From positions 263,649 through 327,648 of the forward strand of contig JAHFJN010000001.1 in the NCBI GenBank assembly GCA_023245865.1: a stretch of 64,000 nt of DNA. The letters are read 5' to 3'. Positions 36,615-40,179 of this stretch are shown piece after piece (within the stretch, counting starts at the first letter, position 1; each line of letters starts with the position of its first letter). Origin of the DNA: Candidatus Peribacteria bacterium. GTDB taxonomy: Bacteria > Patescibacteriota > Gracilibacteria > Peribacterales > Peribacteraceae. The notes below the pieces were generated by a model. That model was not told the origin of the DNA. It did no database searches and saw nothing but the letters and a program-made list of their open reading frames with translations. Position numbers and translations under genes: made by a program.

Positions 36615-36631
36615 AGGTATACGATCGAGAT

Positions 36632-37261
36632 ATGGGAATAAACGCTCTAAAAGATCAGCACATTGAAATAAGTCCAAGAAAAACGAAAGGGAACGCTGCG
36701 ACCACTATAGCTAGGACACTTGTTCTGAGCGCAGGACTCTTGCTCGGTTCTTCCAATAACGTAGGTGCTGAAGAAGAATCCAACAAACCGGGCACCAATG
36801 AAGTGCAACCTGAAGAATTGCCGGATCTTGCAGACATCAAAACAGATGACGAAGGAAACTTCCCGATTGGTTCAAAATCAACAGTTACTATCAACGGACA
36901 AAAGCATGTCATCTATGTGAGGGAAACAAGGTTGAAAAAAGATGGTGTACAGAATGTCGCCGAAACCGATATTATGGTTGGTAATAAACGTTTGAGACTA
37001 TCATGTCTGCAAAGCCCAGTGGTAATTACGGGACAGAAGCTGAAGGTTAATAAAGATGGCGTAAAGGAGCTGCATATATCTGGGAAAAATGCTATCAGTA
37101 GCGGGAAGACTGTCGTACCGCTCGATGAATTTTGTAAGAGTCTTGAATGTTTTTTTGATGAAGATGATAAAAATGACGAAGTACCGTTCGATGTAGATAT
37201 CGGTGACATTTTCACCGTCGGCGCAACACTAAAACTAGCGGAAAGGGCGAATGCGATGTGA
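36632..37261 (+). CDS. Hypothetical secreted protein
   Basis: 209-aa ORF with an N-terminal hydrophobic stretch (TLVLSAGLLLGSS). Composition is visibly more A/T-rich than neighbouring genes. Confidence 0.5.
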   Translation: MGINALKDQHIEISPRKTKGNAATTIARTLVLSAGLLLGSSNNVGAEEESNKPGTNEVQPEELPDLADIKTDDEGNFPIGSKSTVTINGQKHVIYVRETRLKKDGVQNVAETDIMVGNKRLRLSCLQSPVVITGQKLKVNKDGVKELHISGKNAISSGKTVVPLDEFCKSLECFFDEDDKNDEVPFDVDIGDIFTVGATLKLAERANAM

Positions 37262-37327
37262 AGCTTTTTATGGTGGTTTACCATGAGCCAATAATTAGTG
37301 TCATCCTGAGCACAGTCGAAGGACGAG

Positions 37328-37402
37328 TGGTGGCCCAGGCCGGGATCGAACCGGCGACACCTCGCTCTTCAGGCGAGTGCTCTACCACTGAGCTACCGGG
37401 CC
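37328..37402 (-). tRNA. tRNA-Phe (anticodon GAA), CCA encoded
   Basis: Reverse complement: GGCCCGG TA GCTC AGTGGTA GAGC A CTCGC CTGAAGA GCGAG GTGTC GCCGG TTCGATC CCGGC CTGGGCC ACCA. Confidence 0.9.
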
Positions 37403-37647
37403 ATAGGGAAATGGTAGTGGAATTTGGCAATACGACAAGTTCTCGTTTTGTAGCTACAATACATCTAAGGAAAATCACATTCCGAACCATGTATGGGATC
37501 GTCTTCCTGATTCAACAAAGATTTGGGCACTCTAGAAGACGAATACGATGCACGCTGGGCAAAAGATCCACTTGTCAGTGCATGGAAGCTTCAAAGAGAT
37601 AAATAGGTACTCATAGAAATGGCATTTCCGAAGTTCCAATTCCCGAA

Positions 37648-37677
37648 TGGTGGAGCTTTCCGAACCAATCTCGAACT
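37648..37677 (-). repeat. tRNA 3'-end-like repeat, copy A
   Basis: TGGTGGAGCTTTCCGAACCAATCTCGAACT. The first 10 nt equal the complement of the tRNA-Ala 3' end (40104-40113). A degenerate tandem half-copy TTTCCGAAGTTCCAATTCCCGAA lies just upstream (37625-37647). Confidence 0.6.
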
Positions 37678-37693
37678 ACATTGAATTACAGCC

Positions 37694-38095
37694 TTACTGT
37701 TGCTCTTTCGATTTGTACCTAAGAGGTGAGTTTGCATCTCCGTTGTGTGACATTACCTTTGATAAAAGAAAGGCTGTGGCTGTCTCATTGAGAAGCGGAT
37801 CGTTTTCTGTAACCTCGGTGATTTTCGTAACCTGATTGCAATTATCTCTACCCTCACCCGCAAGAAAGCGACAAAAGCCGTTGATAGCTTCTCGGAATTT
37901 CCCGCGTTCATCTTGTATCACTGAGTTAGGTTGATCTCCATGCATTTCAAGAAAACCGTCTAAAATTGTTTTGCCTAAGCCGTCTTTTGTATCGAGTACC
38001 AATTCCTGCGCTGTGCCGGGTATTGCAGGCAAATACATCCCATCAGCAGCAGAACCTAACATTGGATATCCTTCGACTAAGACTTTGAAACGCAT
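37694..38095 (-). CDS. Hypothetical protein
   Basis: Listed ORF 37694-38203 begins with TTG directly after a terminator hairpin. The first ATG (MRFKVLVEGYP..) is at 38095. No recognisable motifs. Confidence 0.45.
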   Translation of the reverse strand: MRFKVLVEGYPMLGSAADGMYLPAIPGTAQELVLDTKDGLGKTILDGFLEMHGDQPNSVIQDERGKFREAINGFCRFLAGEGRDNCNQVTKITEVTENDPLLNETATAFLLSKVMSHNGDANSPLRYKSKEQQ

Positions 38096-38210
38096 AGGTG
38101 GATATTTTAACTGTTGTAGTATTTTTGTCAAGTGCAGTGCAGAGCTGGAGGGGCTTGAACCAGTGAGTATGCAAAGTCGCACGAAGTGTGCAGACTCGTT
38201 CAAGGTGCAT

Positions 38211-38232
38211 CAAAAAAGCGCCAAGTGGCGCT
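38211..38232 (-). terminator. Rho-independent terminator (minus strand)
   Basis: Minus strand reads AGCGCC-ACTT-GGCGCT followed by TTTTTT (plus strand AAAAAAGCGCCAAGTGGCGCT). Confidence 0.55.
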
Positions 38233-38365
38233 TTCTGATCAAACTGATCAAAGTGTGCATAGTTGTCATTGGCTGCGCTACGTGATCGTGCGCAGGGACG
38301 TAAAGCGACTGCGTCGCTACGTCCCACGTAAAATAGCTGCTCGCTTCGCTGTGCGCGATTTTACG

Positions 38366-38395
38366 TGGTGGAGCTGTAGGGATCAATTTCGAACT
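38366..38395 (-). repeat. tRNA 3'-end-like repeat, copy B
   Basis: TGGTGGAGCTGTAGGGATCAATTTCGAACT. The first 11 nt are identical to tRNA-Ala 40104-40114. The last 25 nt are identical to copy C. Confidence 0.7.
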
Positions 38396-38541
38396 CGACA
38401 GGCCTACAAAAGTGGATCCGCTTGAACGGTCAGAAAAGCTCATCGGGCTGAGGAATTCTCTGGATTTTGTAAAAAATATTCTCAAGAGTGCAGAAGCCAT
38501 GAAATGTACTCTTACGCTATGAAATGTTGTGGGTCGTCAAT

Positions 38542-38566
38542 GAGCTGTAGGGATCAATTTCGAACT
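38542..38566 (-). repeat. tRNA 3'-end-like repeat, copy C
   Basis: GAGCTGTAGGGATCAATTTCGAACT, 25/25 identical to 38371-38395. Confidence 0.7.
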
Positions 38567-38599
38567 TTTTGATCCACAGGTTAAGAGTAAGATTGAGGT

Positions 38600-38857
38600 A
38601 TGAAAAAAGTCTCAAAAGCTCTACGCAAAGAGAAAAAATCCAAGCAGGAGCCTGCCTCTTTTCACATTTTGGATATATTGTTTGGAGCAAGATCGGCTGC
38701 TGCGATCAGCTATTTTGGGGGACTTCTTGTCTTTGCATCCACGCAATCTGTTCCAGGCATAGGTACTGATGGTCATGGCAATTTAAATTTTGGCCGAGCA
38801 CCGTACTATTTCATCGCCGAAGTGTTCCGTCTTTTACAAGGTGGGGATTGTTTTTAA
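38600..38857 (+). CDS. Hypothetical small protein with one hydrophobic segment
   Basis: 85-aa ORF. GAGG lies 4 nt upstream of the ATG. Lys-rich N-terminus, then AAAISYFGGLLVFAS. Confidence 0.4.
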   Translation: MKKVSKALRKEKKSKQEPASFHILDILFGARSAAAISYFGGLLVFASTQSVPGIGTDGHGNLNFGRAPYYFIAEVFRLLQGGDCF

Positions 38858-38969
38858 TTGCTCTTGGTTTTGCTTTGCAGTTTACAGATGGCTTTCGATA
38901 TAGAAATCGGATACCCATCATTATCGGATGTGTGATTCCATTTCTTTTTCGTCTTTTCAGTACGTCCCA

Positions 38970-39776
38970 TTAGTCAGTTGTCGAAGCTGCAATTCCCACA
39001 AATCGCCCATCGGGCAGATACAACGTCCAAAAGAAACTACCCCACCATTCTTTGCCAGCATCAAAATAATTGGAGCAGTCCGTATTCCACCTGTAGATCA
39101 CCGCATCAGATGGAAGGTCACCCAATACTGTCTTAACCATCTCATCGAATAACTGCTGCAATTCGATACCGTGGATTCTCACACTGTATGGCGGCTCCGA
39201 AAAGGAGTATGCATATCCCTCATGCTGTGGTGATGTGCCAGCACTGAAGACAATATTCTTTTTGGATTCTTCCTCTCCTGCTCGAAAATAATCATTCAAG
39301 AAATCCCGATGTCGCCCTCGGGCAAACAAATGTTTTGTTTTTATATCAAAATACGGTCCCAAGAATTGCTCCATTGTTATACGCTCTCCGGTCATCCCAT
39401 CGGTTTTGTATGTCATATGCCAGTAGGTGCCTGGGTCCTTGTGTTCATTCTTGAATTCAACGACAACATCTTTACCTTCTTCTTTAATCGAAATGATGAG
39501 GTCTTTATTTCCGAATGTTTTCAGAGCTTCATCTATCGATTTGCAATCCTTGTATTGCATAAACAGGCTGTCTTTCGAAACATGTTCGCCAACTTCCTGT
39601 TCGCGTTTTTTCTGTAATGTATCCAAAGTCAAAATAGCAGCTTCACGATGTGCTTCTTCTGTGCTTCCTAAGGCACCTTCGCCATTGATTAAGACGTGAT
39701 CAATTACACCACCAATTTCCCTGTATTTATTCAATACACTCTCCTCAGCCGGAGATAACTGCTGGATAGCTTTCAT
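38970..39776 (-). CDS. Hypothetical protein (no signal peptide; Trp-rich C-terminal block)
   Basis: 268-aa ORF. C-terminus: YRWNTDCSNYFDAGKEWWGSFFWTLYLPDGRF. I cannot assign a family from memory with confidence. Confidence 0.6.
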   Translation of the reverse strand: MKAIQQLSPAEESVLNKYREIGGVIDHVLINGEGALGSTEEAHREAAILTLDTLQKKREQEVGEHVSKDSLFMQYKDCKSIDEALKTFGNKDLIISIKEEGKDVVVEFKNEHKDPGTYWHMTYKTDGMTGERITMEQFLGPYFDIKTKHLFARGRHRDFLNDYFRAGEEESKKNIVFSAGTSPQHEGYAYSFSEPPYSVRIHGIELQQLFDEMVKTVLGDLPSDAVIYRWNTDCSNYFDAGKEWWGSFFWTLYLPDGRFVGIAASTTD

Positions 39777-40015
39777 ACGGTTACTATATCAGAGATTCTC
39801 TAATATAACCTTGTCCCATCCTCATCAATCTTTATGACATTAGGATCATCCAATGGTTCCTGCTCCTGAATCTCTTTCATAAGGAGTAATAGACCGATGA
39901 CATTGGTAAAATCGTAGTTTTTCCATTTCGCAGGAAGCTTGTCTCTAAAGTCGTCCATAGTGGGCAAACCGTTGCTCTCCTATGCAAAGATTGCAACTCA
40001 GTGGACTGGACTTAA

Positions 40016-40037
40016 GTTCGAATCCCTTCAGCTCGAG
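40016..40037 (+). repeat. Inverted tRNA-Ala-3'-end-like fragment
   Basis: GTTCGAATCCCTTCAGCTCGAG on the plus strand resembles the sense 3' end of tRNA-Ala (GTTCGACTCCCCTCAGCTCCA), but in the opposite orientation to the gene about 70 nt away. Confidence 0.5.
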
Positions 40038-40103
40038 CTGTTCCTCTTCAAACTGACTTTTGCTCTTCAGATAAACGAAAAGTCTGTGTTGTGTCATATT
40101 CGT

Positions 40104-40179
40104 TGGTGGAGCTGAGGGGAGTCGAACCCCTGACCTCGTCATTGCGAACGACGCGCTCTACCAACTGAGCTACAGCCCC
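40104..40179 (-). tRNA. tRNA-Ala (anticodon CGC), CCA encoded
   Basis: Reverse complement: GGGGCTG TA GCTC AGTTGGTA GAGC G CGTCG TTCGCAA TGACG AGGTC AGGGG TTCGACT CCCCT CAGCTCC ACCA. The G3:U70 identity pair is present. Confidence 0.9.

Follow-up and report, generated by a model that had tools for sequence, protein, structure and literature searches.

The window analysed here is a 64,000-nucleotide stretch of the genome of an uncultured Candidatus Peribacteria bacterium (C3:263649-327648 of a 1.1-Mb genome with a GC content of 0.53), and it contains an array of short gene packets, called units below, beside a tRNA-Ala gene. Positions are those of the window unless they carry the prefix C3. 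The array is anchored at tRNA-Ala(CGC) (40104-40179, minus strand) and is bordered at its distal end by tRNA-Phe(GAA) (37328-37402, minus strand). Both genes were called by ARAGORN, and the distal border is also indicated by synteny with the genome G022, which has the order obg, tRNA-Ala, cargo, E, tRNA-Phe in common with the window, E being a 204-nt element with which units end. Junction alignments place the insertion point directly 3' of the ...CAGCTCCACCA of tRNA-Ala, at base 40104. Read along the minus strand, tRNA-Ala is followed by unit 1, a 96-nt block of hairpins, unit 2 and tRNA-Phe. Unit 1 is composed of a 52-aa open reading frame (ORF), a 268-aa ORF, possibly an 85-aa ORF, and then E; unit 2 is composed of a segment that we call X, an ORF of 133 or 169 aa, and a stump of a second E. 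We argue that 37648-40103 is probably a tandem array of two integrated packets of the form left end, cargo, E, which carry no recombinase of their own and for which a large serine recombinase (LSR) is the inferred mover.

E of unit 1 occupies 38366-38569 on the minus strand, as delimited by model matches and by a paralogue, and ends in ...CAGCTCCACCA as the tRNA gene does. Its first repeat, R1 (38542-38566, minus strand), is followed by ATTGACG and 146 nt, and its second repeat, R2 (38371-38395, minus strand), is followed by CACCA at 38366-38370. The layout of E is in general R1 (approximately 25 nt, ...ACAGCTC), ATTGAC, approximately 146 nt, R2 (approximately 25 nt) and CACCA, and its last 11-16 nt, CCCTACAGCTCCACCA, match the acceptor and CCA tail of tRNA-Ala. 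The original prediction, made from the letters of the window, had pointed to four fragments resembling the 3' end of tRNA-Ala, namely copies A, B and C and an inverted one. All four are present where it had placed them; copies B and C are 25/25 identical, and copy B, given there as 38366-38395, has TGGTGGAGCTG in common with the tRNA-Ala end, its first 11 nt being identical to 40104-40114. A fifth fragment, GGTTCAAGCCCCTCCAGCTC, was overlooked at 38142-38161 on the minus strand. That B and C are separate attachment-site (att) scars, however, did not stand, since they are R2 and R1, the two ends of one element. A sequence-only model searched over 200 genomes (84 genera) of the family found E in 50 genomes and 35 genera, with up to seven copies per genome, often in tandem at distances of 0.85-2.9 kb and often two or three to an array.

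Full-length copies of E in other genera are 77-84% identical, and the edges of conservation are sharp, with an abrupt start at AAAGTTC and an abrupt stop at CCA. The same genome has a paralogous E at C3:547096-547299, downstream of tRNA-Ala(TGC), which is 78% identical over 204 nt, and the 171-nt spacing of the internal repeat is equal in both copies. Copy A is the 3'-terminal stump of the second E of the array (37648-37681, minus strand; model positions 171-204; nhmmer E = 2.7e-4). By hand count it is 27/30 identical to the end of the E of G022, which occupies the syntenic position upstream of tRNA-Phe. A search of the 1.1-Mb genome with the 25-mer common to B and C, as the original prediction had proposed, found it at two loci only, each downstream of a tRNA-Ala gene, so that it does not belong to a genome-wide family of repetitive extragenic palindromes (REP) or miniature inverted-repeat transposable elements. 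Within one E the two repeats are alike at 20.95 of 25 positions, compared with 18.28 of 25 between different copies, and none of 10,000 permutations reached the observed value, although mixed pairs also occur. A hairpin between R1 and the DNA upstream of it looked compensatory by eye in four of the first five copies, but no general complementarity was visible upstream of 59 copies.

The array region is compositionally foreign. The GC content of 37403-40103 is 0.431 against a genome mean of 0.53 (sd 0.033), at about the 1st percentile, and its tetranucleotide distance lies at the 98th percentile; the A/T-richer islet described in the original prediction is therefore real. Across the interval from 36618 to 40179 drawn there, the GC content is 0.440, but the left quarter (36618-37327) is not in the array, and the 209-aa ORF at 36632-37261 lies beyond tRNA-Phe, outside the array. 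The ORFs of the array are cargo, as the original prediction had proposed. Comparison with relatives showed that the region is variable and not uniformly conserved: their syntenic loci hold different cargo, and E is patchy inside genera. The locus therefore has the marks of a tRNA-gene island, with foreign composition, presence or absence among relatives, a tRNA 3' end with a distal direct repeat, and junctions exactly at CCA; an integrase of its own is missing in the window. Nearby, the GC content is lowest (0.35-0.38) at 42000-42600, in the interval that separates obg from the gene next to it, where there is a 119-aa ORF (42036-42395). A 29-nt hairpin element, AGTGTCATCCTGAGCACAGTCGAAGGACG, adjoins tRNA-Phe at 37298-37326; it belongs to a REP-like family with dozens of copies genome-wide, one of them directly after the second E (C3:547294-547348), and is distinct from the tRNA-Ala-like repeats.

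That the units insert at one exact position came from the junctions of 16 arrays, which were compared all against all with blastn and read directly. Two left ends recur. The first, CCA followed by ACGAATATGAC..., is the leader of the 52-aa ORF and forms the left end of unit 1 (39959-40103, minus strand). It stands behind tRNA-Ala in the window and in G150 and behind E in G090, with 89.7-91.8% identity over 321-380 nt. The second, CCA followed by TGACAACTATGCAC..., is segment X, which stands behind tRNA-Ala in five loci, behind E in two and behind tRNA-Ile(TAT) in one. In the window, segment X (38142-38269, minus strand; it begins TGACAACTATGCACAC and ends in the fifth tRNA-Ala-like fragment) comes after E with the unique hairpin block between them. 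As identical left ends are found behind tRNA-Ala or E, the unit of left end, cargo and E inserts exactly after CCA, directly 3' of ...CACCA, and the tail of E serves as the equivalent of the tRNA tail. It also follows that each insertion brings a new copy of the target and that arrays can grow through the accretion of units. These exact junctions behind tRNA-Ala or E bear out the serial integration at tRNA-Ala suggested in the original prediction, as site-specific insertion at the 3' end of the gene. With the window, G150 shares E and X as well as the left portion of unit 1; its internal gene is a different one. Identity between genera is 75-94% for E, X and the small ORF but only approximately 66-70% for flanking housekeeping genes.

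Upstream of E, wherever the sequence reached far enough, a tRNA-Ala gene (CGC, TGC or GGC) in the same orientation was found, at 19 genome loci, on 11 metagenome contigs and in G187. The single exception is an array in G090 that starts at tRNA-Ile(TAT), the tail of which is also CCACCA. There (L050, G090:C1, 6085-6251) segment X directly follows a genuine tRNA-Ile(TAT) gene with the tail CCCACCA, and the target may therefore be as short as a CCACCA tail. In G168 (L199, G168:C1, 2860-3100), an E with a tRNA-Ala-like tail is located approximately 9 kb downstream of tRNA-Lys, in one stretch with an LSR gene overlapping that tRNA-Lys, and a tRNA-tail-like fragment, TCGAATCCCTTCCACCA, immediately precedes it; this stretch appears to combine att fragments from more than one type of tRNA.

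The cargo of the arrays was scanned in 81 ORFs from approximately 30 arrays; a few of these ORFs, those of L053 in particular, are located past the last co-oriented E and probably belong to the flanks. Many defence genes, restriction-modification (R-M) genes included, are among the ORFs: a C5 methylase with a Cfr10I-type endonuclease, an N6/N4 methylase, a SMODS cyclase of the cyclic-oligonucleotide-based anti-phage signalling system (CBASS), AbiJ and DUF4145, AAA_15 with OLD-TOPRIM, a PD-T4-6-type kinase and PD-T7-4. In Peribacteria the system is family-wide, with a patchy distribution inside genera and a foreign composition, and its cargo includes many defence genes.

What could move these units? 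The original prediction was right that the window contains no integrase, and indeed no recombinase gene of any kind is found in it, so that an LSR integrative element with its recombinase gene at the att junction is not what the window holds. That a recombinase was present and has since been lost, as had been supposed, is not established, since only two of approximately 56 arrays, those of G187 and G161, carry any recombinase, in both cases an LSR. With a recombinase in so few arrays, most units look non-autonomous. In G187, an LSR gene of 529 aa (Resolvase, Recombinase and Zn_ribbon domains) reads into tRNA-Ala(CGC). Its unit, of 6.7 kb, ends in an R2-like site homologous to positions 164-204 of E (41 nt) and is followed by X. 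Behind the CCA of the next, distal full E there are 31 nt left over from the 3' end of the LSR gene. G161 has an orthologue of 554 aa that is intact and 79% identical, and in this genome it is the CCA of a full E that the gene crosses. As this LSR clade is found at tRNA-Ala in one genome and at the CCA of E in the other, and as the end of its unit is homologous to the last 41 nt of E, the units of the window can be taken as derivatives of such elements. In the free circle of the G187 element, 42 codons from the attR side would be added to the LSR, so that the att site falls within the 3' part of the gene. We therefore suggest that the mover is probably an LSR rather than the tyrosine integrase usually implied by attL and attR at tRNA genes. 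It would be supplied in trans by rare autonomous elements, and the units of the window would be decayed or satellite derivatives, mobilised at most in cis or trans by an LSR-bearing element.

Such an arrangement of LSR genes is common in the family. At 25 of 30 and a further 6 of 8 family loci (L204-L233 and L235-L241), LSR genes are convergent to tRNA genes and abut or run 12-60 nt into their 3' ends, the tRNAs being those for Ala, Ile, Val, Lys, His, Met, Arg, Leu and Glu. LSRs were present in 10 of 12 E-bearing genomes tested. The family LSRs look like a general tRNA-tail-targeting system with the att site inside the recombinase gene. The genome under study has an LSR of its own at tRNA-Glu(TTC), outside the window (C3:597980-599662); when the attR of this element was sought, no repeat of the tRNA end was found within 80 kb. 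A second LSR clade, at tRNA-Ala(GGC) in G150, has the same frame as E, but no E is located within 22 kb of it. Among other candidates, reverse transcriptase and IS200-type Y1 transposase genes occur in 5 and 7, respectively, of the 12 E-bearing genomes, but none was seen at the arrays, and the single pattern match in viral contigs was attributed to chance.

Movement of the units by a tyrosine recombinase, either the single Xer-type enzyme of the host, as for integrative mobile elements exploiting Xer (IMEX) at dif, or an integrase encoded by some unsampled phage or plasmid, has to be weighed against an LSR. It is conceivable insofar as an Xer-like gene is present in every genome, the 3' ends of tRNA genes are the classical targets of tyrosine integrases, and tandem arrays of the CTX/TLC type resemble arrays with att-like repeats. 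However, no tyrosine recombinase was found within approximately 6 kb of the approximately 56 arrays, and many near-complete E-bearing genomes have a single PF00589 gene. Our genome contains no other sequence like the repeat of E (up to 5 mismatches in 25), and thus no dif-like copy was found. It has two Xer-like genes outside the array, one of them patchy: the second, of 305 aa (C3:614872-615786, outside the window), is present in 20 of the 200 genomes, and its protein is 88-93% identical between different genera, which suggests recent horizontal spread. This gene is uncorrelated with E, since 5 of its 20 carriers have E against a background of 25%. As it is LSR genes that are physically located at the junctions, we regard movement by a tyrosine recombinase as improbable.

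E itself contains a further signature on its reverse strand. A frame, GGAVGINFELDRPTKVDPLERSEKLIGLRNSLDFVKNILKSAEAMKCTLTL followed by a stop, can be read at 38367-38522 on the plus strand. From the reverse complement of R2 (GGAVG...) it extends over 47-51 codons to a stop, and it is open, with the stop at the equal aligned position, in 42 of 44 unique copies of E translated. Among the six frames it has the highest synonymous fraction (0.31, against 0.08-0.24), and, as read by eye, its amino acids are kept between groups with divergent nucleotides, for example SLD as TCT CTG GAT and TCA CTC GAT. No conserved frame was found on the forward strand of E. The reverse frame looks to be under coding constraint. 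It has no universal start codon, and upstream of CCA it is short and unconserved across the 44 copies. We also considered that integration splits a gene, but the frame is not continued upstream of CCA and no long fused protein was found. Since the frame enters from the att core, as LSR genes do, the simplest reading is that it would be what is left, at the 3' end, of a gene extending across attP in the free circle. We would like to point out that this is the weakest step of our explanation, as a full-length partner was not detected: searched against 1.84 billion proteins, the E-peptide profile matches only the C-terminus of 33 short ORFs from gene callers.

The coding signature with its conserved stop could also mean that E is simply a small protein gene of 34-51 aa on the opposite strand, vertically inherited and adjacent to tRNA-Ala, and that the locus is a passive hotspot of unrelated insertions and deletions in which E has no role in recombination. 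The synteny of obg, tRNA-Ala, E and tRNA-Phe with G022 is in keeping with this. We nevertheless think it has little chance of being correct, because E is found at loci of three tRNA-Ala isoacceptors, in tandem copies and patchily within genera, because identical cassette ends abut the CCA of E just as that of the tRNA, and because it is also at the CCA of E that LSR genes and remnants of them dock; the absence of a universal start codon points in the same direction. That E is instead a structured non-coding RNA gene with a tRNA-like 3' end (a transfer-messenger RNA (tmRNA)-like or permuted tmRNA or a processing signal), with variable genes merely around it, is very unlikely: although its boundaries are sharp, its end equals the acceptor strand of tRNA-Ala with CCA, and a tmRNA_permuted match near tRNA-Ala reaches 24.9 bits (gathering score 47), E is not covered by any Rfam family, it folds no better than shuffled sequence (z = -0.95), RNAalifold detects a single covarying pair among 5 sequences and gives no consensus structure for 34 diverse copies, no 5' acceptor strand is visible on reading, the codon-like constraint is on the opposite strand, and the genome already has its own tmRNA, so that E does not belong to a tmRNA or tRNA-like RNA family.

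Several observations weigh against our preferred reading of an array of recombinase-less packets moved by an LSR. Approximately 54 of the approximately 56 arrays examined, like the window, have no recombinase. The LSR specific for tRNA-Ala or E was found in only 2 of the 200 genomes, and its wider clade in 8 genomes, 5 of which carry E. The frame of the LSR at the junction (aTG GTG GAG) is one base off that of E (t GGT GGA GCT), and no long protein among the 1.84 billion representatives is found by the E-peptide profile. Finally, the preferred reading assigns no role to the 5' repeat R1, which co-varies with R2.

A further reaching possibility, which we put forward only tentatively, is that E is a self-renewing docking module that mimics the tail of tRNA-Ala, with a two-copy site and a micro-ORF, by which recombinase-less packets, many of them with defence genes, may be captured, stacked and re-mobilised in trans by LSRs specific for tRNA tails. 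It might then be an integron-like system of the candidate phyla radiation (CPR), in which a serine recombinase and the tRNA tail would replace IntI, attI and attC.

The individual parts of the two units can be described as follows. The leader of unit 1 contains the inverted tRNA-Ala-like fragment, GTTCGAATCCCTTCAGCTC (40016-40034, plus strand). The conserved small ORF of 52 aa that follows (39800-39958, minus strand; DFRDKLPxKWKNYDFTN...DEDGTRLY) is the sole recurrent cassette gene, with 13 copies across the 16 arrays. It falls into 47 protein clusters, those with a named source all being from Peribacteria or Peregrinibacteria, and its model, a single helix with a small hairpin at a predicted local distance difference test score (pLDDT) of 76, is too small for a fold search. 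The 268-aa cargo gene (38970-39776, minus strand) has no match in Pfam, PHROG or PADLOC. Its nearest named homologues, 27-43% identical, are from a cyanobacterium, a Pseudotenacibaculum species and a soil metagenome, that is, only from distant taxa outside the lineage, and its confident model (pLDDT 84) has no fold analogue in the Protein Data Bank in a fold search. The possible 85-aa ORF (38600-38857, plus strand) is an uncertain gene, at the end of which there is a hairpin resembling a terminator.

The 96-nt block (38270-38365) exactly fills the interval from the CCA of E to segment X; it is made of three abutting hairpins and ends in ...GCAGCCA. It is missing from the equivalent junction in the other arrays compared and may be a tiny insert in its own right. 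Segment X contains, by eye, a terminator-like hairpin at approximately 38211-38234. The cargo ORF of unit 2 is 133 aa long from an ATG (37694-38095, minus strand) or 169 aa from an upstream TTG (37694-38203). Right after the tRNA-like fragment of X there is a near-consensus promoter-like site, TTGACA-16-TAAAAT (11/12; 38104-38131, minus strand). As this site ends approximately 9 nt upstream of the ATG at 38095, the 133-aa reading is favoured, possibly with a very short leader or none. The five ORFs of the interval first described have no Pfam or PHROG match at a meaningful score, in agreement with the original prediction that they are unassignable.

The array is a variant of tRNA-targeted integrative islands; a literature search found no description of the E or array system in Peregrinibacteria. 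Among the closest described parallels are the tycheposons of Prochlorococcus, which are described as tandem islands at tRNA genes with flanking partial tRNA copies, in which later arrivals push earlier ones deeper and degenerate remnants and extra partial tRNAs persist (bioRxiv 10.1101/2020.12.28.424599). The Peribacteria arrays share with them the insertion at tRNA genes, the partial tRNA copies, accretion, remnants, and cargo that is adaptive or related to defence (bioRxiv 10.1101/2020.12.28.424599). Tycheposons carry tyrosine recombinases and replication modules, whereas the Peribacteria units are mostly recombinase-less, LSRs being the only recombinases seen at their junctions, and each of them is closed by a conserved element of 204 nt that has a direct repeat inside it and a frame on its reverse strand.

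Like integron cassettes, which consist of an ORF and attC, the units are short, poor in promoters and carry 1-3 genes, each with a conserved end resembling a recombination site, and they lie in a single orientation beside a fixed entry point, most of them without a recombinase. In contrast to integrons, there is no IntI or attI, the repeats of E are direct and not inverted, without hairpin symmetry, and the entry point is a tRNA tail; with no tyrosine recombinase near the arrays and no conserved secondary structure in E, the system is not an integron. The cis-mobilizable elements (CIMEs) of Streptococcus lack an integrase and are bounded by att sites, and an integrative and conjugative element (ICE) bearing an integrase can insert alongside them to give composite tandem arrays. 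The LSR-bearing unit of G187, in tandem with units terminated by E, resembles this accretion. CIMEs, however, are deletion derivatives of known ICEs, with tyrosine integrases and a protein-gene 3' end as the target, and we know of no conserved terminal module like E described for them. In the integrated state, the recombinase genes of G187 and G161 extend over the att site into the tRNA gene or E, as do the split integrase genes of the SSV type. The SSV integrases are tyrosine recombinases split near the N-terminus; here, the junction is at the extreme C-terminus of a serine recombinase.

Targeting of tRNA genes is classically the domain of tyrosine integrases, and LSR genes lying across tRNA 3' ends are unusual as integration machinery. 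The genomes of CPR bacteria are tiny, and little is known of how these bacteria exchange genes. The locus described here is a family-wide hotspot, anchored at tRNA-Ala, that stacks short packets including R-M, CBASS-type cyclase, AbiJ and OLD-type genes. If the 204-nt element is an active docking site, it would provide a compact natural attB/attP pair with a defined recombinase, and it would explain the turnover of defence genes in these symbionts.

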